A stretch of 64,000 nt of DNA, from positions 17,086 to 81,085 of the forward strand of contig CAXMOZ010000089.1 of NCBI GenBank assembly GCA_964195315.1. The letters run 5' to 3'. Positions within the stretch are counted from its first letter, which is position 1. Each line of letters opens with the position of its first letter. Below the pieces are notes generated by a model that was given only the letters and a program-made list of their open reading frames with translations, had not been told where the DNA came from and did not search any database. The position numbers and the translations under genes are program-made. The stretch comes from an uncultured Acidimicrobiia bacterium (GTDB lineage Bacteria > Pseudomonadota > Gammaproteobacteria > GCA-001735895). Of the stretch, positions 602-22,703 are shown one piece after another.

Positions 602-1870
602 ATGACACCAAATATAAAGCTCGGGGCGAGTCAACCGGGTGCAGTCGTTGCTTTTGTGCTCGGTGCCCTTTTTTTCGGCTATGCCTTTATTCAGCGCGTC
701 TCACCAAGTGTGATGACAGCCGAGTTGATGAGTGAGTTTGCGGTGGGTGCGACGGCTTTAGGTTCGTTATCAGCCTTTTATTTTTATACCTACGCATCCA
801 TTCAATTACCGGTTGGAATGCTCACCGATCGCTTTGGCCCTCGTAAGTTAATGAGCTTTGCGGCTGGGTTATGCGCTTTTGCTTCACTTGGTTTTGCTTT
901 AAGTGATTCAATTATTAGCGCCTCGATTGGACGAGCATTAATCGGTGGCACTGTCGCCTTTGCCTTCGTCGGTACTTTGTCTATCGCGAGTTACTGGTTT
1001 AGTGCCAGACGTTATGCGCTATTGGCAGGCTTACTACAATCAGTCGGTATGTGCGGTGCTATATTTGGCCAGGCACCATTGCGCCACCTAGTTGAGTCAG
1101 TTGGTTGGCGGGGTTCTATGATGGTGCTCGCGGGGGCCGCTATACTGCTGTCAATTTTGCTATTTTTATTGGTGCCTCGTCGTTCGGCCGATCAACTCGG
1201 TGTCTCGGGACAAAGTAAAATACTCGAGGGTTTAAAATTGATAGCAGGCAATAAACAAACCTGGATTTGCGCGCTCATCGGTTTCGGAATGGCCTCCATT
1301 ATGCTCGGCTTTGGCGGACTTTGGTCTGTGCCCTGGTTGACCACCGTTCACGGTTATTCGACGGTTGAAGCGGCTGGTATAACCTCGATGATATTTGTTG
1401 GTTGGGCAATATTTTCACCCATTGTTGGTTGGCTGTCCGATAAGATTGGTCGACGTAACCCAATTATGATGATGGGTTCTTTATTGTGTCTGACCGCATT
1501 TGCCAGTCTCATATTTTACACCCCTGATAACACTGCTATGATTATGTGGCTTATTTTTCTGACAGGTGCTGGTGGTAGTGCCATGACCGCAGGTTTTAGC
1601 TCAGTACGAGAACTAAATCACCCCAGCTTTAGCAGTACTGCACTGGGCTTAATGAATATGTTCATTGTTGGTGCAGGTGCAGTGATGCAGCCGCTTATTG
1701 GCTGGTTACTCGATAAGCATTGGGATGGAGTACTGGCTAATGGTGCCAGGGTTTATTCCGATCAGGCCTTCACAACCGCATTAACCAGTTTGCTTGTAGT
1801 AACCTTTATGGCGTTTATCGCGACATTTCTACTACGTGAAACTTATTGCAAACAATTAGACTTTGAATGA
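602..1870 (+). CDS. MFS transporter
   Basis: About 12 hydrophobic segments; motif A-like GMLTDRFGPRK and GWLSDKIGRR. Confidence 0.92.
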   Translation: MTPNIKLGASQPGAVVAFVLGALFFGYAFIQRVSPSVMTAELMSEFAVGATALGSLSAFYFYTYASIQLPVGMLTDRFGPRKLMSFAAGLCAFASLGFALSDSIISASIGRALIGGTVAFAFVGTLSIASYWFSARRYALLAGLLQSVGMCGAIFGQAPLRHLVESVGWRGSMMVLAGAAILLSILLFLLVPRRSADQLGVSGQSKILEGLKLIAGNKQTWICALIGFGMASIMLGFGGLWSVPWLTTVHGYSTVEAAGITSMIFVGWAIFSPIVGWLSDKIGRRNPIMMMGSLLCLTAFASLIFYTPDNTAMIMWLIFLTGAGGSAMTAGFSSVRELNHPSFSSTALGLMNMFIVGAGAVMQPLIGWLLDKHWDGVLANGARVYSDQAFTTALTSLLVVTFMAFIATFLLRETYCKQLDFE

Positions 1871-1879
1871 GTTTGAACT

Positions 1880-3595
1880 ATGGATATTCCACACCTTGAA
1901 TCGACCCAGTTAACCATCGATGATTGTCGCCGACTCACTGGCCCGTCGTTAGTATGGGATAAAACTGGTGCCATACTCGATGTTTTAATCGAGGGCAGGG
2001 ATATGGATGACGTGCTGACATGTTGGTATCGTCATATTAATAATTTGCTCGTGTCGATTAACTGGGCAGAGCCCAATTTGACGCATCGACGTTATGAGAA
2101 CGGTTTTAATTTACTTTTAGCCGCGCCAATCGACCAGCTTTACTCGGCAACGATCGTGCTCGAAACAGCCTGGTATTTTTGTAGCTGTGAAGTGCTTGTG
2201 AAGCCTGTGGATAGTCAGGCGCAATTAATTCAGGCAGTTCGAGATAGCATGCAATCTGAACAATTCCCCGAGTCGATTCAGTTACAACAAGCTGCTAAAG
2301 AACAATGTGTTGATTTTTTGATTGATGACGAATTGATTTCAGTAGGCCATGGCGAAGGTTGTATTCAATGGTCAGTGGATGAGTTACCCGAACCAAATCA
2401 AGTTGACTGGACTGCGGTTCATGATGTCCCTGTTGCGCTAGTGACTGGTACCAATGGAAAGTCGACGAGCGTGCGTATTCTAGATGAAATTGCACGAGCG
2501 GCAGGTCGAGTGTCGGGTGTTACTTCAACCGATTTTGTGCGTGTTGGTGATGACGTGTTAGACCGAGGCGATTACTCTGGGCCAGGCGGCGCGCGTTTAC
2601 TGTTACGCGATAGACGTTTACAGGTCGCATTTTTGGAAGTAGCCCGTGGTGGTATATTACGGCGTGGTTTGCCATTACAACGAGCGAGTGCCGCTTTAAT
2701 TACCAATGTCAGTTCCGATCATCTCGGTCAGTATGGCGTCAATACGCTTGAAGCTTTAATCGAAACTAAATTTGCAGTAAGGCATTCGATTACGGATCAC
2801 GCTATGCTGGTAGTGAACGCCGATGATGGTGGTATTGTTGACTACATGAGCAGTCACCCGCGTAACAACGTTTGCTGGTTTAGCCTTGACAAAAACAACA
2901 CCAAAATACAGCAACAATTTGAAAGCAATGGATGTTGCAGTTTTGCCGATAAAGATGAATTGTTTTACTTTGATGGGGATACCATTTCGTCGGTCTGCCG
3001 CATTGATAGTATTCCCATGACGATGAATGGTGCGGCCGTACATAATGTGCGTAATGCATTGGGTGCGATCGGTGTTTCAATCTTCATGGGGTTTTCTATC
3101 GACAATATTCGTCAAGGGTTAACTGAATTTCAAAGTGATGCGAGCGATAACCCAGGGCGACTCAATAGTTTTGAGTTGAAAAATGGGGCTCGAGTGATTG
3201 TAGATTTTGCACACAATGCGCATAGTGTTCAGGCAGTGACTGATACGATTAAACGTCTACCGGCAAAGCATAAATGGGTATTGTGTGGTTCGGCTGGCGA
3301 TCGGTCTGATTCGGATATTCAAGCTATAGCGCAGGGCGTTTGTTCGGTGCAACCGGATCACGTCATTATCGCTGAGGTTGAAGATTACTTACGCGGTCGG
3401 GTGCCGGGTGAAGTTGGCGATATTATGAAGCAGGTCTGTCTGGAGAGTGGGCTAAGTGATTCACAGATTCACTTTGCCAAGTCTCCATTAGCTGGGGTTT
3501 CCTTTGCTTTGTCTGAGATGGCTGAGCAGGACTTGGGGTTGTTTCTAGTCTTAGATGAGCGCGACGAAGTGATTGAATTAATTAGGGTATCTTGA
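1880..3595 (+). CDS. Mur-ligase-family protein with cyanophycin-synthetase-like N-terminus, no ATP-grasp domain
   Basis: P-loop VTGTNGKSTS, LEVARGGILRRGL, TNVSSDHLG, PGRLN, DFAHNA; N-terminal RRLTGPSLVW resembles the CphA N-domain start. Confidence 0.75.
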   Translation: MDIPHLESTQLTIDDCRRLTGPSLVWDKTGAILDVLIEGRDMDDVLTCWYRHINNLLVSINWAEPNLTHRRYENGFNLLLAAPIDQLYSATIVLETAWYFCSCEVLVKPVDSQAQLIQAVRDSMQSEQFPESIQLQQAAKEQCVDFLIDDELISVGHGEGCIQWSVDELPEPNQVDWTAVHDVPVALVTGTNGKSTSVRILDEIARAAGRVSGVTSTDFVRVGDDVLDRGDYSGPGGARLLLRDRRLQVAFLEVARGGILRRGLPLQRASAALITNVSSDHLGQYGVNTLEALIETKFAVRHSITDHAMLVVNADDGGIVDYMSSHPRNNVCWFSLDKNNTKIQQQFESNGCCSFADKDELFYFDGDTISSVCRIDSIPMTMNGAAVHNVRNALGAIGVSIFMGFSIDNIRQGLTEFQSDASDNPGRLNSFELKNGARVIVDFAHNAHSVQAVTDTIKRLPAKHKWVLCGSAGDRSDSDIQAIAQGVCSVQPDHVIIAEVEDYLRGRVPGEVGDIMKQVCLESGLSDSQIHFAKSPLAGVSFALSEMAEQDLGLFLVLDERDEVIELIRVS

Positions 3596-3731
3596 TTTTG
3601 TTGTTCCTTTAAATAGCGGGGACTAGTGACTTGTTATTTGTAAAGGTCTGTCCTTAGGTTTTCTAACCCCTCGATCTTGTCTCGGCGAGAGATTAGCAAT
3701 GAGGGAATCGTTGTGCATCACTGTGATTAAA

Positions 3732-4319
3732 TCAGGGCGTTTTTTTACCCGTAATACCTGCGGTTAATACAAATCGCATTGCTTCATTCATACTCATTTT
3801 ACAGGGGCTAATCCTGTCGAGCGGTACTAGTAATGTAAAGCCACCAACCATGTAACTCATCGGTATATAGACCAACGCAGTTTCTGGTTTTTGGAAAGCA
3901 TCTGGTAACCGATTAATATCTTCCTGAGTGATAAAACCGATCACTTCCAAACCATCAATGTTGACGATTACAACCTGACCAAAGCCCTTTTTCTTTGGTG
4001 AAAAGAAGTCAGACAGATCATGCATGATACGATAAATGGTATTCACTAATGGTAGTTTGTAGAGAATTCGCTCACCAAATGCAAAAACCTGTCGCACAAA
4101 AATAGCTCTCATCATTAGACCAACCAGAAATATGATAGCCAGTCCCACAATGGTGCCCAGACCTGGAAAATAAATCGCCCAGGGGAACGCCCATTGTAAA
4201 GCGCCACCCATGATTTTCTCTGCTGAAACGGCTAACCAATACAGTAGGTATACCGTCAAAACCACGGGTAATAAAGTGATTAATCCTGTGAGTAGGGTTG
4301 CACTAATAGATTTGAACAT
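3732..4319 (-). CDS. DUF502 domain membrane protein
   Basis: GLITLLPVVLT N-terminal TM, KLPLVNTIY, VYIPMSYMVGGF, MNEAMRFVLTAG. Confidence 0.85.
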   Translation of the reverse strand: MFKSISATLLTGLITLLPVVLTVYLLYWLAVSAEKIMGGALQWAFPWAIYFPGLGTIVGLAIIFLVGLMMRAIFVRQVFAFGERILYKLPLVNTIYRIMHDLSDFFSPKKKGFGQVVIVNIDGLEVIGFITQEDINRLPDAFQKPETALVYIPMSYMVGGFTLLVPLDRISPCKMSMNEAMRFVLTAGITGKKTP

Positions 4320-13510: not shown

Positions 13511-14338
13511 TTATGCTGCTTTAACTTCGTGCATGTGAACATCTTGCTGTGGGTACGGAATGCTAATACCTGCTTCATCTAGCTTAACCTTAATGCCCTC
13601 GAGCAACTCAGCACGAACGCCCCAGTAATCAGCTGAATTCACCCAGGGGCGAACATTCAAATTAACACTGCTGTCACCTAATTCTGCAACGGCAACACCC
13701 GGTGCAGGGTCTTTTAAAATAAGCTCGTTCGATTCTATAATCCTCATAATAATGTCTCGAGCTTGACCAATGTTGTCGTCATAGCCGATGCCAATGACAA
13801 GGTCGATACGGCGCGTTGGTAAAGCACTGGTATTAATAATATTGCCCCCCAAAATGGCCGAGTTAGGAATAATGATACGTTGGTTGTCAGCGGTATGCAT
13901 CAGAGTTGCGAACAAACCAATTTCATCAATCACACCTGCCGCGCCGCCAGCGGTAACAAAGTCACCAATTTTGAATGGGCGAAAAATGATGATCATAACG
14001 CCAGACGCAAAGTTAGATAGCGAGTCCTTCAGCGCTAAGCCAACAGCAAGACCGGCGGCAGCTACAATTGCCATCAGTGAGGTAACGTTTACACCGAGAG
14101 AGTCTACGGCGGCAAGTACAACGGCGACTATCAATACACCGTATGAAATGCTACCCATAAAATCCACTAGCATCGAATCGATGCCAGATTTTTGCAGAGC
14201 TTTTTTTAGAAGATTACTAACGATTCTGGCAACTATTTTACCGATAATAAATATCGCAATCGCAATGACGATCTTAATGCCCCAGTCAACCCCGTTATTG
14301 GCGATCCAATTTGTTACGTTGTCCATTTTTAGTTCCAT
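13511..14338 (-). CDS. mscS: Small-conductance mechanosensitive channel
   Basis: AAGLAVGLALKDSLSNFASG, RPFKIGD, IIPNS, PYPQQDVH. Confidence 0.93.
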   Translation of the reverse strand: MELKMDNVTNWIANNGVDWGIKIVIAIAIFIIGKIVARIVSNLLKKALQKSGIDSMLVDFMGSISYGVLIVAVVLAAVDSLGVNVTSLMAIVAAAGLAVGLALKDSLSNFASGVMIIIFRPFKIGDFVTAGGAAGVIDEIGLFATLMHTADNQRIIIPNSAILGGNIINTSALPTRRIDLVIGIGYDDNIGQARDIIMRIIESNELILKDPAPGVAVAELGDSSVNLNVRPWVNSADYWGVRAELLEGIKVKLDEAGISIPYPQQDVHMHEVKAA

Positions 14339-14667
14339 TGTTTATCTGTTTTTAGAATAATAAAGTAACGGGTCATACTTTTTCTAATCAAACTGAGTTT
14401 ATCGATAAAGAATCCCCGCGAGCCCTTGTCCACATCTATTATAGCGAATGCTTAGACCGATGGTAAACATGAAAGTTATACCGATCTTAATCTACCTGAA
14501 TGCGATTATCACGAGTACTATAAATGAAACCTGTTGTGTTACTCAATCAGGTTAATAGCGCTTAGACAATAAGATTTTGGATAAAAGTAAACTTTTAACC
14601 TATTCTGTACGCTTGGTATAAAGTTATATTATTGGTTAACAACAAATTAAAATAATGAGGAAGGGGT

Positions 14668-16209
14668 ATGGATTTACCATTCGTGGGCGACGGTGTTGAT
14701 AAATTTGTTGCTGGATTTGTATCAGTCACAACAACGCTTATTGTGTTATCGATCTGTTTTGGGGCTGTTGCGGTAGTTGTCATTTACATCATTGATATAA
14801 CTCAAACTAAGCAGGCGATCCGGCGTAACTATCCGGTTGTTGGACGATTTCGATACTTTTTTGAACATCTGGGTGAGTTTTTTCGGCAGTATTTCTTTTC
14901 GATGGATAGAGAGGAACTACCGTTTAATCGAGCCCAGCGATCATGGGTGTATCGAGCAGCCAAACAGGTGGACACCACGGTAGCATTTGGATCGACTAAA
15001 GACTTAAGGCCCGCAGGGACAAACATATTTCTGAATTGCCCATTTCCGACGCTGGGTACGGATGGGGTTGATCCAGGTGAGATAGTGATAGGGCCACAGG
15101 CAAGAAAGCCCTACGCCACACGCTCGTTGTACAATATATCGGGTATGAGTTTTGGAGCGCTTTCGGCCCCCGCTGTAACGGCACTGGCACGCGGTGCCAA
15201 GGAAACCAAGTGTTGGATGAATACAGGCGAAGGGGGCGTCTCTCCCTATCACCTCGCTCCAGGTTGCGATCTGATCGTGCAAATTGGCACCGCCAAATAT
15301 GGTGTGCGTGACCTTGAAGGTAATCTGAGTGATGATAAGCTGAAAGCGCTGGCTGAATACGAACAGATTAAAATGTTTGAGATTAAATTGAGTCAAGGTG
15401 CAAAGCCCGGTAAAGGTGGCATTCTGCCTGGCGAAAAAGTATCTGCTGAAATCGCTGAAATCCGAGGCATTGAAATTGGTACCAGCTCTATCAGTCCTAA
15501 TCGTCACCCCGATATTAATTCAGTTGATGACCTTACTGATATGATCAACCATATTCGTGAGGTGACTGGTCGTCCTGTTGGAGTTAAATGTGTTGTAGGT
15601 GCTAGTGGGTGGCTAGATGATTGGTTTGATAGCATCAATAAACGGGGTAAAGAATGCGCGCCTGATTTTATTACGGTCGACGGTGCGGAAGGGGGGACAG
15701 GTGCAGCACCTATGGCATTGATCGACGAAGTCGGGCTTCCGCTGCGCGAGAGCTTGCCACTAGTGGTAGATAAATTGGATATTCATGGTCTGCGTGATCG
15801 GGTCAAAGTGATCGCTTCTGGAAAATTAATCAATCCGTCAAATGTTGCCTGGGCTTTATGCATGGGTGCTGACTTTTGTACTTCAGCTCGAGGCTTTATG
15901 TTTTCACTTGGATGTATACAAGCCTTGCAGTGCAATAAAAATACTTGCCCAACTGGAATAACAACCCACGACATTAAATTGCAGCGTGGCCTTGACCCTA
16001 CCAATAAAGCAGTCCGAGTAGCCAAGTTTCAAGATCAAATTGAATACGAAGTTGGTCTTATCGCGCATGCTTGTGGTGTGACAGAGCCACGCCAATTACG
16101 TCGATTTCATTGCAGAGTGGTACAAGAGAATGGCATTTCGATACCCTTAAATGATATATATCCTGATAGGTCAACTGTCGGTTATTTGAGCCGGCGCGGA
16201 AACGGCTAG
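14668..16209 (+). CDS. FMN-binding glutamate synthase family protein (stand-alone, N-terminal TM)
   Basis: MSFGALS, NTGEGG, EIKLSQGAKPGKGG, DGAEGGTGAAP, GCIQALQCNKNTCPTG (3Fe-4S Cys motif). Confidence 0.92.
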   Translation: MDLPFVGDGVDKFVAGFVSVTTTLIVLSICFGAVAVVVIYIIDITQTKQAIRRNYPVVGRFRYFFEHLGEFFRQYFFSMDREELPFNRAQRSWVYRAAKQVDTTVAFGSTKDLRPAGTNIFLNCPFPTLGTDGVDPGEIVIGPQARKPYATRSLYNISGMSFGALSAPAVTALARGAKETKCWMNTGEGGVSPYHLAPGCDLIVQIGTAKYGVRDLEGNLSDDKLKALAEYEQIKMFEIKLSQGAKPGKGGILPGEKVSAEIAEIRGIEIGTSSISPNRHPDINSVDDLTDMINHIREVTGRPVGVKCVVGASGWLDDWFDSINKRGKECAPDFITVDGAEGGTGAAPMALIDEVGLPLRESLPLVVDKLDIHGLRDRVKVIASGKLINPSNVAWALCMGADFCTSARGFMFSLGCIQALQCNKNTCPTGITTHDIKLQRGLDPTNKAVRVAKFQDQIEYEVGLIAHACGVTEPRQLRRFHCRVVQENGISIPLNDIYPDRSTVGYLSRRGNG

Positions 16210-16296
16210 ATGTTGAGGTTGTCTGAAAACATTAATTAAAAAAAGGTCTGAAAAAACCAACTCAATAAGCGAAAGCTCTAACCCCAAGGAATCCCA

Positions 16297-17931
16297 ATGA
16301 AAGCGAGTGATCTGTTTGTACGTTGTCTAGAAAATGAAGGCGTTGAATATATTTTTGGCATCCCTGGAGAAGAGAATCTCGATGTCATGGATTCGATGAT
16401 TGGTAGCGATATTAAGTTTATAACCACTCGGCATGAACAGGGGGCCGCGTTTATGGCTGATGTTTATGGACGTTTAACCGGCAGAGCGGGTGTATGTCTA
16501 GCAACGCTCGGCCCTGGTGCTACCAATCTGGTCACTGGGTTTGCCGATGCCAATATGGATAGAGCGCCCATTGTTGGAATAGCCGGGCAGGGTGCGACCA
16601 CAAGAATGCATAAAGAAAGTCACCAGGTACTTGATTTGGTGAGTTTGTTTGCACCGATATCTAAATATAGCGTTGAGATTCGGGAACCTGAAATTGTTGG
16701 CGAAATTGTACGTAAAGCGTTTAAAGCCGCAGAAGCCGAAAAACCAGGCGGCAGCTTCATTTCATTTCCTGAAAATGTAGCGGAGATGACAGTCGAAGGT
16801 AAAGAGCCACTCAAGGTACAAAGTGCTAAGCCACCCGTACCACCGCAGGATAAAATTTTACAGGCAGCGGAGTTGATTTCGAATGCCAAATATCCTCTGG
16901 TGATGGCTGGCAACGGTGTCGTAAGAGCGAAAGCCGATTATGCATTAGTCGCCTTTGCCGAAAAACTCAATATACCGGTAGCCACTACCTTTATGGCCAA
17001 GGGCAGTATTCCATTTTCTCACGACCTGTCGCTTGGCACGGTTGGTTTACAGGCACATGATTATGTTGCCTGTGGTTTTGATCGAGCCGACGTCGTGATT
17101 TGTATCGGCTACGATATGATCGAATATCATCCTCATCTTTGGAATCAGGAAAAGAACAACAAGATTATTCACATTGATTTGAATCCGGCCGAAGTGGATG
17201 AACACTATATACTTGAATGTGGTGTTATCGGTGATATCACCGCTGCATTAGAAGGCATTGCAGCATTGGCAACCCCGAAGACAGGTTCACAGGCGCAAAA
17301 CTTACGCGAAACCATTGTCGAAGAACTGAATACCCACGAAGACGACAGCTCATTCCCATTAGTGCCTCAACGCATTGTGCTCGATATCCGAAAAGCCTTA
17401 GCACATGACGATATCGTGGTATCCGATGTGGGTGCTCATAAGATGTGGATGGCGCGTATGTATCAGGCTGAGCGTCCGAATACTTGTATTATCTCAAATG
17501 GTTTTGCATCGATGGGCATCGGTGTGCCAGGTGCGATAGCGGCCAAATTGGTTTATCCAGATAGAACCGCATTAACAGTAACAGGTGATGCCGGATTTCT
17601 AATGAATTCACAAGAGATCGAAACTGCCATGAGAATTGGCACCGCAATTATTATATTGATCTGGAACGATAGCAAATATGGTTTGATAAAATGGCATCAG
17701 GACCGTCGCTTTGGCCGTGACACTCAAATTCAATTTAATAACCCTGACTTTGTGATGTATGCCGAGAGTTTTGGCGCAAAAGGATATCGTGTTGAATCTG
17801 CTGATGACTTATTACCGACCATTAAAAAGGCCATTGCCGACGATACGGTGGTAATCATCGATTGTCCCGTGGATTACTCAGAGAACATGAAACTCACCGA
17901 GAAACTTGGAAATCTAGTTTGCCCTATTTAA
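16297..17931 (+). CDS. ThDP-dependent acetolactate-synthase-like enzyme; candidate 2-oxoglutarate decarboxylase (OgdA-like)
   Basis: FGIPGEEN, RHEQGAAFMAD, DVGAHKMW, SNGFASMG, GDAG..N ThDP motif; resembles, from memory, cyanobacterial OgdA. Confidence 0.85.
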   Translation: MKASDLFVRCLENEGVEYIFGIPGEENLDVMDSMIGSDIKFITTRHEQGAAFMADVYGRLTGRAGVCLATLGPGATNLVTGFADANMDRAPIVGIAGQGATTRMHKESHQVLDLVSLFAPISKYSVEIREPEIVGEIVRKAFKAAEAEKPGGSFISFPENVAEMTVEGKEPLKVQSAKPPVPPQDKILQAAELISNAKYPLVMAGNGVVRAKADYALVAFAEKLNIPVATTFMAKGSIPFSHDLSLGTVGLQAHDYVACGFDRADVVICIGYDMIEYHPHLWNQEKNNKIIHIDLNPAEVDEHYILECGVIGDITAALEGIAALATPKTGSQAQNLRETIVEELNTHEDDSSFPLVPQRIVLDIRKALAHDDIVVSDVGAHKMWMARMYQAERPNTCIISNGFASMGIGVPGAIAAKLVYPDRTALTVTGDAGFLMNSQEIETAMRIGTAIIILIWNDSKYGLIKWHQDRRFGRDTQIQFNNPDFVMYAESFGAKGYRVESADDLLPTIKKAIADDTVVIIDCPVDYSENMKLTEKLGNLVCPI

Positions 17932-17977
17932 GGCCAGAGATTCTTTATTAATAGACAAACAAAAATAGGGAGCAACC

Positions 17978-19414
17978 ATGACTGCTGAATTTCAACTAAT
18001 GGTTCCTGGCGCGACAGCGGATAAAGAACACAGAGTATCATCACCCTGGGATTTATCCGATATCGGCATGGTGCCAACCATCAACTCGACTGGTGCTGAT
18101 ATCGCGATGAAAACTGCACAAGCGGTATTTCGGGATAAATCTCGATGGCTAAAGCCCGAGCAGCGAATCCAGATACTGGAAAGAACAGCACAAATAATGA
18201 GCGAACAGTTCGAAGCCTTAGCCATTCTGGCGGCTAGCGAAGGCGGTAAGCCATTACTCGATTCACGTGTTGAAGTCGCTCGCGCTATTGATGGCGTACG
18301 TAATTCAGTGGAATGCCTGCGCACTGAAAGTGGTCGTGAAATTCCGATGAACTTGAATGCAGCTTCGGCTAATCGACTCGCGTTCACGAGACGAGAACCG
18401 ATAGGTGTGGTGATGTCGGTCAGTGCGTTTAATCACCCACTGAATTTAATTGTCCATCAAGTTGCACCCGCCATCGCTAGTGGTTGTCCGGTTATTATCA
18501 AACCAGCAGAAGATACACCTTTATCCTGTTTTCGCTTTGTACAAATACTACGTGAGGCTGGTTTGCCGGCTTCACATTGTCAGGCGGTGATGACGAGTGA
18601 TCTCGATGTCGCATCACAATTAGTGACAGACCGGCGTGTTGCCTTCTTTTCATTTATCGGCAGTGCCAAGGTCGGCTGGATGTTGCGCTCACAATTAGCC
18701 TCAGGCACTCGTTGTGCTTTAGAACATGGCGGTGCAGCGCCAGTCATTATCGCTCAAGATGCAGATCTTGATGATACGCTACCTTTGATAGCCAAGGGTG
18801 GTTTCTATCATGCCGGTCAAGTTTGCGTGTCAGTTCAGCGAGTTTTTGCGCATCGAAGCATCGCGCGTCAGGTCGCTGAAAAACTAGCTGAGCTTGGTTC
18901 GAAAATGAGCATCGGTGATCCAATACTTGAGTCAAGTTTGATAGGTCCATTAATACGGCCCAGAGAAGTCATGAGAGTTCATAACTGGGTAACGGACGCT
19001 ATTGCCGAAGGTGCCGAGTGCCTGGTCGGTGGCGAATTAAATTCAGACACCAGCTATCAATCGACTGTATTATTTGAGCCTTCGCCTCAAAGCAAAGTCA
19101 GTCAGTTAGAAATCTTTGGTCCTGTGATTTGTGTGTATGCCTATGACGATATCGATGAAGCAATTGCTCGCGCCAATAGTCTCGATGTCGCCTTTCAGGC
19201 ATCGGTATTAACCAGTAGCATCGATACCGCAATGCATTGTTATACTCAGCTTAATGCATCGGCGGTGATGGTCAACGACCACACAGCCTATCGTGTCGAC
19301 TGGATGCCTTTTGCTGGTTTGAAACAATCAGGCCTGGGCGTTGGCGGCATTCCCTATACCTATGAAGACATGCAAATCGAAAAGATGATGTTGTTACGCT
19401 CAAAGGCTTTATAA
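17978..19414 (+). CDS. NAD(P)-dependent aldehyde dehydrogenase
   Basis: AFNHP, IKPAEDTP, FIGS, LEHGG (Glu), GQVCVS (Cys), EIFGP, PFAGLKQSG. Confidence 0.95.
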   Translation: MTAEFQLMVPGATADKEHRVSSPWDLSDIGMVPTINSTGADIAMKTAQAVFRDKSRWLKPEQRIQILERTAQIMSEQFEALAILAASEGGKPLLDSRVEVARAIDGVRNSVECLRTESGREIPMNLNAASANRLAFTRREPIGVVMSVSAFNHPLNLIVHQVAPAIASGCPVIIKPAEDTPLSCFRFVQILREAGLPASHCQAVMTSDLDVASQLVTDRRVAFFSFIGSAKVGWMLRSQLASGTRCALEHGGAAPVIIAQDADLDDTLPLIAKGGFYHAGQVCVSVQRVFAHRSIARQVAEKLAELGSKMSIGDPILESSLIGPLIRPREVMRVHNWVTDAIAEGAECLVGGELNSDTSYQSTVLFEPSPQSKVSQLEIFGPVICVYAYDDIDEAIARANSLDVAFQASVLTSSIDTAMHCYTQLNASAVMVNDHTAYRVDWMPFAGLKQSGLGVGGIPYTYEDMQIEKMMLLRSKAL

Positions 19415-19436: not shown

Positions 19437-20636
19437 GTGATCGAAATAATGCAGGGTCAACCAATGTTGATCGAAAATAGAGTGCCTCGACAAGACTGGG
19501 ATCGAGCCCCGTGGAATCGTTGGAGTTTTCAAAATATACGCCAGATTTTACCGACCACCGAAGTTTGGCGTGGCAATGGGAAAGTGCGCGAAATACCACG
19601 CCAAATACTCAATAAGGCGCAAGATATTAGTTATCTTCCAGTCGTTACATCGGACGCGAGACCTTCAACCATACAAACCTGGATAGACTCCAGCTACACC
19701 GATGGCATCGTTGTTTTGCATCATGGGGCGATAGTATTCGAGCAATATCACAACGGCATGTCAGAGCGAACATTACATCTGTCGCAGTCGATGGCGAAAT
19801 CAATCGTGGCTTCAGTCGCGGGTATATTAATGGGCCGAGGTTTATTGAGCCCAACCGAACAGGTCACCACCTACCTGCCTGAACTGGAAGCCACTGGATG
19901 GAAAGGGTCAACCTTACAGCAAGTAATGGACATGACGACTGGTGTGCGCTATATCGAAGACTACGAAGCACTCGACTCCGACATTGCGGTGACAGACTTT
20001 GCTTCAGGTTGGAAGCTACCCCCTCCTGGCAGTGCCACACCAACCTGCCTGTGGGATCAAATTTTAACCCTGACCGAAACCACTCGAGCGCATGGTGAGC
20101 TATTTAATTACCGTTCTATTGAAACTGATGTGCTCGCGCATTGCATGGAGCGTGTGACTCAAACCCGCCTCGCTGACCTGGTGAGCAACGAGCTTTGGCA
20201 ACCATTAGGCTGCGAAGAAAGCGCTAGTTTCACTGTTGACTCAGCTGGCTATGCGCTGGCTAACGGTGGCTTTAATGCGACCTTGCGAGACTACGCACGC
20301 TTCGGCCAAATGTTACTAGAACAAGGTAGTGTGGACGATAAGCAAATCGTACCCATGCGTTGGATCCATGATATTCACAATGCTAACCCTCAATTGTTTG
20401 GTGAGCCCTATACTTTTAGCACCCCTAATGGTGCTTATAAAAATCAGTTTTGGATCGAAGATGTTGCCCAAAAAGCATTTATGGCGAGGGGTGTTTTTGG
20501 CCAATTGATATACATTGATCCTGCCCACGACATGGTCGTGGTGAAGCTGTCGAGTTGTCCCGAGTTTGTTTCGGCGCCGCGATTACAGGATGATTTGAAT
20601 TCGATTCATGCTATAGCAAATGCTTTTCATGGCTAA
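19437..20636 (+). CDS. Serine hydrolase, beta-lactamase class C / NylB-like
   Basis: SMAK (SxxK), FNYRS, GVFGQ; NRWSFQN N-terminal motif of NylB-like proteins. Confidence 0.9.
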   Translation: MIEIMQGQPMLIENRVPRQDWDRAPWNRWSFQNIRQILPTTEVWRGNGKVREIPRQILNKAQDISYLPVVTSDARPSTIQTWIDSSYTDGIVVLHHGAIVFEQYHNGMSERTLHLSQSMAKSIVASVAGILMGRGLLSPTEQVTTYLPELEATGWKGSTLQQVMDMTTGVRYIEDYEALDSDIAVTDFASGWKLPPPGSATPTCLWDQILTLTETTRAHGELFNYRSIETDVLAHCMERVTQTRLADLVSNELWQPLGCEESASFTVDSAGYALANGGFNATLRDYARFGQMLLEQGSVDDKQIVPMRWIHDIHNANPQLFGEPYTFSTPNGAYKNQFWIEDVAQKAFMARGVFGQLIYIDPAHDMVVVKLSSCPEFVSAPRLQDDLNSIHAIANAFHG

Positions 20637-20681: not shown

Positions 20682-21182
20682 ATGACCAATAGTAAAAAGC
20701 ACATTTTTAGAAATACCCAAACGGCTAATGACATGTCAATCATAGATACTTGTGGCTGTACCGAACAAACCGGTCAATGGCAGCAATACCCAAGGCTAAG
20801 CAATCACCAACTAGTCGACTGGGTCGCTATTGGTGCTGGTTTCACCGGGATTGCCGCCGCGAGACGCCTCTCCCAACTTGACCCCAATAAACGAGTATTA
20901 CAGATTGATGGCAAACAACAAGGGCAGGGCTCTAGCGCTCGAAACTCTGGTTTCGCTGTCGCATATGACATGCTCAAATACAGACTAAAGCCGGACGTGA
21001 AGGTTAGATGGCACGCCACACCATCGACAGTGCGGGTGTTGCCGAGGTCGAAAGGCTAGTGACTGAACATCAAATAGCCTGCGACTGGAGCAGAACAGGA
21101 TCAATTCATGCGGCAGCAGATCACAAAAATTTTGTTGCTATCAATAAGCATCAGCAGTGCTTTCCTGAATTCGTTACTGTTA
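20682..21182 (+). pseudogene. Truncated FAD-dependent (DAO-family) oxidoreductase fragment
   Basis: Rossmann IGAGFTG and GSSARNSGF, then frameshift, TAG at 21005-21007, continuation IDSAGVAEVERLV...CDW..TG, then truncation at the convergent amidohydrolase. Confidence 0.8.
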
Positions 21183-22703
21183 TTACCTGGATCGATCTGC
21201 TGCCAGTGAGTTACGATCAATGACGCGTCCCCCCAAAACAAGCCAACGAATTTGATCATAAGCTTCAACCGAGTCGAGCGGGTTTGATTCTAGCAACAGC
21301 AGGTTTGCGGTTTTACCTGGTTCGACGCTGCCGTAGCGATCTTCTAGTCCAAACATCCTGGCATTGTTGATGGTTGCCGATTCCAATAATTTTCTTAAAG
21401 GTATGCCCAAGGCTGCCATGTGAACCATTTCTTGATAGCTGCTTAACCCTGGGAGATTGGCATGACCGGGTGTCGCAGGATGATCACTGGCGAGTAACAG
21501 GTCATGGCCGACCTCAGACAAGTAGCGCACACTTCGCTCGCTGCGACTGATGGGGATATTCATTAATGTAGCGATGCGGTCATCGGGTAGCTTATCGAAA
21601 CCCTCTTGTGCCAGTTCTCTTTTGAACTGGTGTGCAGCAGATGTTCGATACCATTCGAGCAGTTCGGCTGGCACTACTTTCTTCAATATTGGGTCGTCTA
21701 AATGATCAGGAATAAATAGTGATTGCATGCTGTCCATCACCTGGAGTGTTGGTTGGTAGCCGATGCCATTGGCATGTACTGTATCGAGGTGTTGGCGAAT
21801 TTCTTCCGGCATGCCGTTATGCTTCCGGTATTGATTCCAATTCCACAGGCCGTGTCCTAAAACATCCACGCCTGCCTTTACGGCAAGTTGTTACATGTCG
21901 AGTGCATTCGCATGCCCGATAACTTTAAGATTTTTAGCATGTGCAGCATGGATAACTCGCTCGATACTTTCATCGCTCAGCATTGGCCAGTCGTTGATCA
22001 AATCCCAGCCGTCTTCAAAAAACAGCTTTAGGCAGATAGCACCACCATCATTCATTCGTCTGACGACCGCTTCAGGCTTATGTTGCGAAAGATCCAGGTT
22101 GTGTGGGCTGGATTCAGTCGGAGTGTTTTCGTAAATACGATAGGGCAGGGTATTGTCGATTGCATCTGTGTCCATGAAGTTAGTTGGATAACCGGTGGCC
22201 AATGGAGCAGCACCACAGTGGAATATATCTGGGGTTAACGCCCGATTTTGGGACAGGGCTAAAGTTGCAGGATGCGCAGCTGGATCTAAAATTTGAGTCA
22301 CGCCAAAATAGAGCAGGCTACGCTCAAATTGTTGTTCGTATAGCTCAGTCATTCGAGCAAATTTCTGAGAGCGCTGTCCGCCCTTGGATCCGAGACCAGG
22401 AATAACCAACGTATGCAAGTGACTGTCCATCAGGCTAGGTTTAAGGAAAAGGTTACTGCCATCTAACACCTGCGTATTGGCCTTAGGCCGAATAGGCTGC
22501 TCGCTCACGGCTTCAATTTTGCCATCTCGAATGAGAACCGACGCGTGATGCAGTGGTGTCGAGCGTTCAGGTGACACTACAGTTGTGTTTTGAATAATCA
22601 GGTCGGCGGCTATTGCTTGCCCTGCCTCAGCAACGGAAATAATGGTCAATAAAAAAGAAATCAAAAATGGGTTCATAGGTTTTGAAAAGTGAGTAGTCAT
22701 CAT
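21183..22703 (-). pseudogene. Secreted amidohydrolase interrupted by one in-frame TAA
   Basis: Two ORFs in the same frame; read-through gives GHANALDM*QLAVKAGVDVLGHG (stop at 21891-21893); DSHLH, GHA, GHG, ASD metal ligands; hydrophobic N-terminus. Confidence 0.85.

Follow-up and report, generated by a model that had tools for sequence, protein, structure and literature searches.

Three adjacent genes encoding a glutamate synthase-like (GltS-like) flavoprotein, a thiamine diphosphate (ThDP) enzyme and an aldehyde dehydrogenase (ALDH) lie in a 64,000-nucleotide stretch of DNA from an uncultured bacterium (GenBank assembly GCA_964195315.1, contig CAXMOZ010000089.1, positions 17,086 to 81,085), which is called the window throughout. 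The source assembly, in which the window belongs to contig C89, comprises 4.88 Mb at a completeness of 98.2%, and close homologues are named as metagenome-assembled genomes of marine Gammaproteobacteria. The three genes, together referred to as the trio, are:

14668-16209, + strand: gene for a GltS-like flavoprotein, a membrane-anchored stand-alone flavin mononucleotide (FMN)/[3Fe-4S]-type domain (513 aa, PF01645)
16297-17931, + strand: gene for a predicted OgdA/KGD-type ThDP 2-oxoacid decarboxylase, annotated elsewhere as "acetolactate synthase large subunit" (544 aa, NF006187)
17978-19414, + strand: gene for an ALDH21-like aldehyde dehydrogenase, a proposed succinic semialdehyde dehydrogenase (478 aa, PF00171)

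All three genes are co-oriented, with gaps of 87 nt between the flavoprotein and ThDP genes and 46 nt between the ThDP and ALDH genes; the open reading frame (ORF) coordinates confirm the layout given in the initial annotation of the window. Pfam searches identified Glu_synthase (PF01645, residues 149-471) as the sole domain of the first ORF, all three TPP_enzyme domains in the ThDP ORF, and Aldedh in the third. The initial annotation saw neither an ilvN/ilvH small-subunit gene nor alsD near the trio, and this is indeed the case. The sole acetolactate synthase small subunit of the genome, its single ilvH/ilvN match, is encoded on contig C82 (C82:15605-16075) beside an IlvB-like gene whose product is 32% identical to the ThDP enzyme, and alsD (TIGR01252) was not found in the 98.2%-complete genome.

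The ThDP enzyme matches NF006187, a model named acetolactate synthase large subunit, at 800 bits (cut-off 509). Of the two models for the catabolic acetolactate synthase AlsS, TIGR02418 gave 491.7 bits, under its cut-off of 551.1, and NF006378 gave 525.9 bits, narrowly over its cut-off of 510. Every biosynthetic acetohydroxyacid synthase (AHAS) model in NCBIfam fell far under its cut-off, and the AruI model NF005712 reached 299 bits (cut-off 500). The nearest solved structures are AlsS enzymes. Over its full length the window enzyme is 54-57% identical to cyanobacterial OgdA orthologues (55.6% to the Microcystis enzyme MiKGD), as compared to 33% for two bona fide AlsS. Short MaKGD peptides were deduced from the mutagenesis primers published with PMC10418658; one of these peptides, NDGGYGLIEWK, was back-translated and scanned against species-representative genomes to obtain OgdA sequences, that of MiKGD among them. 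The matches were overwhelmingly cyanobacterial and included a protein of Microcystis aeruginosa NIES-4325 that fits the published numbering (E50, M410, D462, K471); we identify it as the characterised MiKGD because of this agreement with PMC10418658. A search of 50%-identity representatives for OgdA gave no clearly cyanobacterial sequence, and the cluster names were uninformative.

Three trees of the ThDP family were built, two of them quick and the third a careful IQ-TREE run. In the careful tree the window protein falls in a proteobacterial clade (100/99) whose sister is the cyanobacterial OgdA clade (100/99); their joint node has a support of 98/95, and AlsS forms a separate clade (100/100). 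The window protein is thus sister to the OgdA clade, MiKGD included, and does not fall inside it. Both quick trees recovered the same sister grouping, with support of 100 and 98. Identity and all three trees bear out the earlier claim that the enzyme groups with OgdA and not with AlsS or IlvB. The initial annotation named four sequence stretches as shared with OgdA: three are exact in MiKGD, and the fourth differs at two of nine positions. In each of the four, 4-7 positions are different in AlsS and in the IlvB of this genome.

The NDGGYGLIEWK peptide also occurs in Thiofaba, Halothiobacillus, Nitrospirota and Thermodesulfobacteriota (loci L101, L131, L028, L099 and L076); no adjoining ALDH or GltS-like gene was found in those of these 8-kb loci that were examined. 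Other fusions in the same ThDP family are represented by P0122 and P0251: one type (677 aa; 16-member cluster) has a C-terminal cyclic-nucleotide-binding domain and another (691 aa) an N-terminal FlK-type thioesterase domain.

The cofactor-activating glutamate and the GDG...N(D) diphosphate/Mg motif are present in the window ThDP enzyme. Alignment with MaKGD identified Glu47, Gln252, Lys382, Ala404, Met406, Asp431, Asp458, Tyr461 and Leu463 as conserved, with Glu47 equivalent to MaKGD Glu50, Met406 to Met410, Asp431 to Asp435 and Asp458 to Asp462. The residues proposed to contact 2-oxoglutarate (2-OG) in MaKGD are Gln254, Val382, Lys386, Ala408, Leu467 and Lys471, as derived by docking into an AlphaFold model (PMC10418658). 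Five of these six docked contacts are kept in the window enzyme, the exception being Lys471, which is replaced by His467, and AlsS differs from MaKGD at four of the six positions. Six of the seven nearest members of the clade share the histidine, and Lys465 of the window enzyme stands in the place of MaKGD Glu469. The nearest characterised relatives have a reported strict specificity for 2-OG (PMC10418658). Judged from its sequence, the ThDP enzyme of the trio is probably a 2-OG decarboxylase.

The ALDH of the trio matches PF00171 at 409 bits and reaches no NCBIfam equivalog cut-off; the GabD/ALDH5-type model TIGR01780 gave 268.8 bits (cut-off 646.35). Its best solved relatives are Burkholderia ALDHs (5KF0, 5J6B, 5JRY) and moss ALDH21, the latter with an E value of 4e-77 over query residues 59-475 only. 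In moss ALDH21, Arg121, Arg457 and Tyr296 bind the carboxylate of succinic semialdehyde (SSA) (bioRxiv 10.64898/2026.01.13.699213). Their equivalents in the window ALDH are Arg102, Arg439 and Tyr277, as placed by a HMMER alignment in which an 18-residue tag was allowed for, and Cys283, Glu249 and Asn152 provide the catalytic residues. Both the carboxylate triad and the catalytic Cys/Glu/Asn are kept in all other ThDP-linked ALDHs aligned (14/14). The cyanobacterial SsaD has different residues at the triad and pocket positions. In the cyanobacterial 8-kb loci, an ALDH gene usually lies just upstream of ogdA where the flank is visible, and its product is 26-33% identical to the window ALDH. The initial annotation had proposed the ALDH as the SSA-oxidising partner of an OgdA-like enzyme. 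The pocket suits SSA, with the triad kept, but the protein is not an SsaD orthologue and belongs to an ALDH21-like subfamily. On the residues compared here, the window ALDH is likely an SSA dehydrogenase.

The FMN domain of glutamate synthase holds 2-OG before the FMN and interconverts 2-iminoglutarate and glutamate (PMC8097209). The flavoprotein of the trio matches this domain (PF01645) at 295 bits, and the full-length GltB model gave a partial match of 137 bits (cut-off 1047). It aligns to approximately residues 850-1160 of GltB and of the ferredoxin-dependent glutamate synthase (Fd-GOGAT) and shares the SGEGG, QGAKPG, IRG and CX5CX4CP motifs; QGAKPGKGG and CIQALQCNKNTCP, the latter being the CX5CX4CP motif, come after the N-terminal helix. 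Since PF01645 is its only domain and the glutaminase, central and GXGXG domains are absent, the flavoprotein is not a glutamate synthase. A single hydrophobic helix at the N terminus (approximately residues 24-42) is followed by a basic stretch, which suggests that the catalytic domain is cytoplasmic. The helix, the FMN-domain motifs and CX5CX4CP are kept in 27/27 flavoprotein orthologues. Equivalents of Fd-GOGAT Glu903, Gln969, Lys972 and Arg992 are present in the window protein, and the Gln978 equivalent is hydrophobic in 27/27 orthologues. A literature search on GOGAT residue roles found no paper. An ESM Atlas search with the flavoprotein returned generic names only.

Orthologues of the flavoprotein with 51-69% identity were found in approximately 60 of 401 sampled Pseudomonadota genomes. 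Twenty of these loci were extended, and in nine a ThDP gene and an ALDH gene (54-58% identical to that of the window) directly adjoin the flavoprotein gene, with one of the nine ending at a contig edge after the ALDH gene; one further locus has the ThDP gene only. The trio occurs in at least seven proteobacterial families (f1, f13, f130, f154, f163, f180 and f187) and in three gene orders: flavoprotein-ThDP-ALDH, flavoprotein-ALDH-ThDP and ThDP-ALDH-flavoprotein. Its ThDP partners are drawn from three subclades of the ThDP family. In RefSeq, the same trio resides on the Leisingera caerulea plasmid NZ_CP081081 (locus L213), downstream of a LysR regulator. In addition, a metagenomic protein of 1016 aa is a natural fusion of the same ThDP and ALDH families, its ALDH part being 54% identical to that of the window. 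This recurrent linkage across families is in agreement with the earlier suggestion that the GltS-like gene is a true partner of the ThDP/ALDH pair. A literature search found no paper describing the trio, and nothing was consistently shared among the outer neighbours of the trios and solo flavoprotein genes of other families.

In family f154, with small genomes, a flavoprotein-ALDH-ThDP trio (loci L194-L196) precedes a pyridine-nucleotide-disulfide oxidoreductase gene and a gene for a glutamine synthetase of true type I, a setting that points to nitrogen assimilation. Quaternary-amine genes lie beside two other trios: in Leisingera they are MttB-family methyltransferase, BCCT transporter, carnitine dehydrogenase and BKACE genes, and on the JGI contig L021 MTTB, DAO-GCV_T and class III aminotransferase genes.

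Building on the observed gene arrangement, family placement, conserved residues and recurrent linkage, we propose a scheme in which all substrates are predicted, as are the direction in which the flavoprotein works and the acceptor of its electrons. The flavoprotein, a single-pass membrane protein with a cytoplasmic FMN/Fe-S domain, would run the glutamate synthase half-reaction in reverse, oxidising L-glutamate (or a very close analogue) to 2-OG and ammonia and passing the electrons to a membrane acceptor. The ThDP enzyme would convert 2-OG to SSA by decarboxylation, and the ALDH21-like dehydrogenase would convert SSA to succinate with NAD(P)+. The module would then be an optional route, independent of coenzyme A (CoA) and lipoate, alongside 2-OG dehydrogenase. 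For the predicted ThDP and ALDH steps the support comes from phylogeny, pocket residues, synteny and the fusion protein, and for the putative flavoprotein step from domain chemistry and linkage. As the likeliest reading, held with slightly less than even confidence, we take the trio to be an accessory catabolic module that turns glutamate into succinate by way of 2-OG and SSA. That the flavoprotein oxidises glutamate to 2-OG is plausible from its domain chemistry and linkage, and we put it forward tentatively. Perhaps the flavoprotein is even the first of an undescribed class, a deaminating respiratory L-glutamate:quinone (or other membrane acceptor) oxidoreductase that feeds a CoA-independent glutamate-2-OG-SSA-succinate route widespread in marine Alpha- and Gammaproteobacteria, although we consider this unlikely.

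The genome encodes both sucA (1146 bits) and sucB (550 bits), adjacent on contig C150, as well as a large NAD-glutamate dehydrogenase on contig C39, a GabD-type SSA dehydrogenase on C19 and the glutamate synthase gene gltB on C214. The initial annotation had envisaged a bypass from glutamate via 2-OG and SSA to succinate; with sucA and sucB present there is nothing to bypass. Because sucAB, the NAD-glutamate dehydrogenase, GabD and GltB are present, and because congeners are often without the flavoprotein or the ALDH, the route would be accessory and not cycle-closing. The loci of the congeners are best described together with the features that flank the trio in the window:

13511-14338, − strand: divergent gene for an MscS-type mechanosensitive channel (Pfam MS_channel domains)
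14339-14667: AT-rich spacer of 329 nt with no gene on either strand, common to the trio and the divergent mscS
19437-20636, + strand: gene for a beta-lactamase-fold serine hydrolase (PF00144, 106 bits)

In 12 congener loci and on the JGI contig L021, mscS is the neighbour of either the gltS-like gene or the ThDP gene. The mscS-ThDP pair is the stable core in the genus: the two genes stand back to back even where the GltS-like gene is missing, as in five congener loci (L150, L151, L153, L154 and L156, from genomes G014, G006, G008, G001 and G022). Across the loci of the genus the flavoprotein gene is present in approximately eight and absent in five, and an ALDH gene beside the ThDP gene is confined to this genome, a single congener and one metagenomic contig. 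The missing flavoprotein or ALDH genes were not found elsewhere in the genome in the five congeners searched for each. The retention of the ThDP gene alone would fit a substrate supplied and a product removed by core metabolism (2-OG, and SSA via GabD). No mscS was seen beside a trio in other families, and mscS was set aside as a part of the module, the pairing being conserved within the genus only. In the speculative reading of the flavoprotein as a respiratory oxidoreductase, a link to the disposal of osmolyte glutamate would be possible in the genus, since the module there is always back to back with mscS.

Several observations weigh against a glutamate-to-succinate module. Ten of the 20 extended flavoprotein loci have neither a ThDP nor an ALDH gene nearby, and the ThDP partners in the trios of other families belong to two other subclades with no characterised member. 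The 2-OG contacts used for comparison were obtained by docking against an AlphaFold model, and the lysine that His467 replaces is the one among them proposed to form a salt bridge; the putative activity is also extrapolated to the proteobacterial clade from cyanobacterial members. The window ALDH is of a subfamily other than cyanobacterial SsaD, and its triad would also suit other omega-carboxy aldehydes. We know of no stand-alone GltS-like flavoprotein with a known function, and the reaction direction and electron acceptor presumed for this one are guesses. With sucAB, a large NAD-glutamate dehydrogenase and GabD already present, no selective need for the module is obvious. Finally, the quaternary-amine genes (MttB, BCCT, carnitine) near the trios of relatives hint at a more exotic feed compound.

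One alternative keeps the same logic with another acidic substrate. An amino dicarboxylate that is not glutamate itself, such as 2-aminoadipate or a glutamate bearing a substituent or N-alkyl group and stemming from the catabolism of amines or betaines, would be converted in turn to a 2-oxoacid, an omega-carboxy aldehyde and a dicarboxylate such as glutarate. The ALDH triad needs only a distal carboxylate, His467 and Lys465 make the distal end of the ThDP pocket unlike that of cyanobacterial KGD, the Gln978 equivalent is hydrophobic in every flavoprotein orthologue aligned, and amine/betaine catabolism genes lie nearby in the window and in relatives. We nevertheless regard such a substrate as rather unlikely, given that the nearest characterised ThDP relatives are reportedly strictly 2-OG-specific (PMC10418658) and that no neighbour beyond the trio is common to the families; the congeners in which the ThDP gene stands alone, with no dedicated feeder or ALDH, are also awkward for an exotic 2-oxoacid. 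It is also conceivable, though quite improbable, that the ThDP enzyme and ALDH make succinate from 2-OG and that the flavoprotein is not their feeder, serving instead in the reductive amination of 2-OG with membrane electrons or in another redox role, and linked to them via shared 2-OG/glutamate regulation. Physiologically the domain works reductively in glutamate synthase (PMC8097209), half of the flavoprotein orthologues examined have no ThDP or ALDH gene beside them, and the f154 trio lies next to glnA. This arrangement is harder to reconcile with a tight linkage that recurs in three gene orders and seven families, and two competing consumers of 2-OG in one operon would be less economical than a linear pathway.

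The remaining alternatives concern the ThDP enzyme more directly. If the name given to its relatives is correct, it is a catabolic acetolactate synthase or other carboligase and its neighbours are unrelated to it. The NF006378 score just over the cut-off and the AlsS enzymes as nearest solved structures point in this direction, and carboligation is a frequent side reaction of ThDP decarboxylases with this fold. What makes this reading very improbable is the far higher NF006187 score together with a TIGR02418 score under the cut-off, the low identity to true AlsS, which forms a separate clade and differs at four of the six contact positions, the absence of alsD from a genome with its AHAS pair elsewhere, and an ALDH that is a recurrent partner and is once fused to the ThDP enzyme. 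An Ehrlich- or arginine-type route for a cationic or neutral amino acid, as in AruI/KauB (2-ketoarginine to guanidinobutyraldehyde to guanidinobutyrate), would have the same enzyme order, an ALS-like decarboxylase followed by an ALDH. The neighbours of the Leisingera caerulea trio include a LysR regulator and a gene of the agmatinase family, a pair that resembles gbuR-gbuA. However, the agmatinase neighbour is seen in no other trio neighbourhood and the AruI model score is far from its cut-off (299 against 500 bits). The ALDH channel has two arginines along it which, in ALDH5/ALDH21, reportedly repel cationic aldehydes (bioRxiv 10.64898/2026.01.13.699213), and we hold an arginine-type route to be extremely improbable.

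The spacer between mscS and the trio is the presumed site of the trio's promoter or regulatory region. A Shine-Dalgarno-like GAGGAAGG precedes the ATG of the flavoprotein gene. A promoter/terminator scan gave counts not above chance, and thus no support for an operon, with consensus promoter matches in the mscS direction only; the inverted repeats in the trio spacers are short and unremarkable. The gene for the beta-lactamase-fold hydrolase is the fourth co-oriented gene, 22 nt past the ALDH gene, and may be co-transcribed with the trio. It is followed by a 125-aa ORF (20682-21059, + strand) that matches only the first approximately 50 positions of the DAO (FAD oxidoreductase) profile and looks like a gene remnant. 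Both were considered as parts of the module and rejected, since relatives do not have them. In the 92%-identical relative L021, an unrelated gene of opposite orientation follows the ALDH gene. A close relative carries a full DAO-FAO_M-GCV_T gene after its ALDH gene, likewise in opposite orientation. Further downstream in the window, a signal-peptide amidohydrolase of approximately 505 aa (21183-22703, − strand) is split by a single in-frame stop into two ORFs of the same frame (21891-22703 and 21183-21869), reflecting either a pseudogene or a sequencing error.

Related genes occur elsewhere in the same genome. Contig C119 (locus L017) carries a second pair at 1190-3859, an ALDH gene followed by a ThDP gene, with products 52% and 47% identical to those of the window. 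This pair is cut by the contig end and has no GltS-like gene upstream; its ThDP enzyme falls together with the ThDP enzymes from the trios of f154. In addition to gltB and the gene in the window, four further stand-alone GltS-FMN-like genes occur in the genome (contigs C125, C69, C104 and C28). The one on C69, beside a GXGXG-like fragment, may be an N-methylglutamate synthase, and two ALDH genes lie near the one on C125.

Thousands of marine genes annotated as acetolactate synthase large subunit may encode 2-OG decarboxylases. Metabolic models of these organisms would then leave out a branch, independent of CoA and lipoate, that leads from glutamate and 2-OG to succinate. The stand-alone flavoprotein has close orthologues in roughly 15% of sampled Pseudomonadota genomes, and the recurrent trio offers a testable hypothesis for its function. 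Culturable carriers such as Leisingera caerulea make testing practical.

The closest known system is the cyanobacterial OgdA/SsaD route (Synechococcus sp. PCC 7002 A2770/A2771, Synechocystis Sll1981, Microcystis MaKGD/MiKGD), which converts 2-OG to succinate via SSA and whose chemistry we propose for the trio as well. There, too, a gene for an ALS-like ThDP enzyme adjoins an ALDH gene, and most of the proposed 2-OG contacts are shared. The window differs in that its host has an intact 2-OG dehydrogenase, its ALDH is of another subfamily and encoded downstream instead of upstream, and it adds a membrane GltS-like flavoprotein gene that is absent from all cyanobacterial loci examined. The AlsS enzymes of B. 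subtilis and K. pneumoniae share the three-domain ThDP fold with the window enzyme, but at 33% identity and in a separate clade, and no alsD is found here. Moss ALDH21 (PpALDH21A1, PDB 5MZ5/5MZ8), an NADP+-dependent SSA dehydrogenase, shares its carboxylate triad and catalytic Cys/Glu/Asn with the window ALDH, although the relationship between the plant and the bacterial enzyme is distant; the Burkholderia proteins 5KF0, 5J6B and 5JRY are closer and carry no substrate assignment.

The flavoprotein shares the PF01645 TIM-barrel, the FMN-site motifs and the CX5CX4CP 3Fe-4S motif with the GltB/GltS alpha subunit. Unlike that subunit, it is without the glutaminase, central and GXGXG domains and the GltD partner, adds an N-terminal membrane anchor, and has a hydrophobic residue in place of Gln978. 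The MgsABC N-methylglutamate synthase of methylamine users differs from the window system in its adjoining genes for amidotransferase-like and GXGXG subunits, whereas the window flavoprotein is membrane-anchored and has ThDP and ALDH partners. In MgsABC, too, a GltS-like FMN subunit has a gene of its own and acts on glutamate and 2-OG at the FMN site, and a further likeness is the glutamine synthetase-like ligase cluster near the trio in the window.

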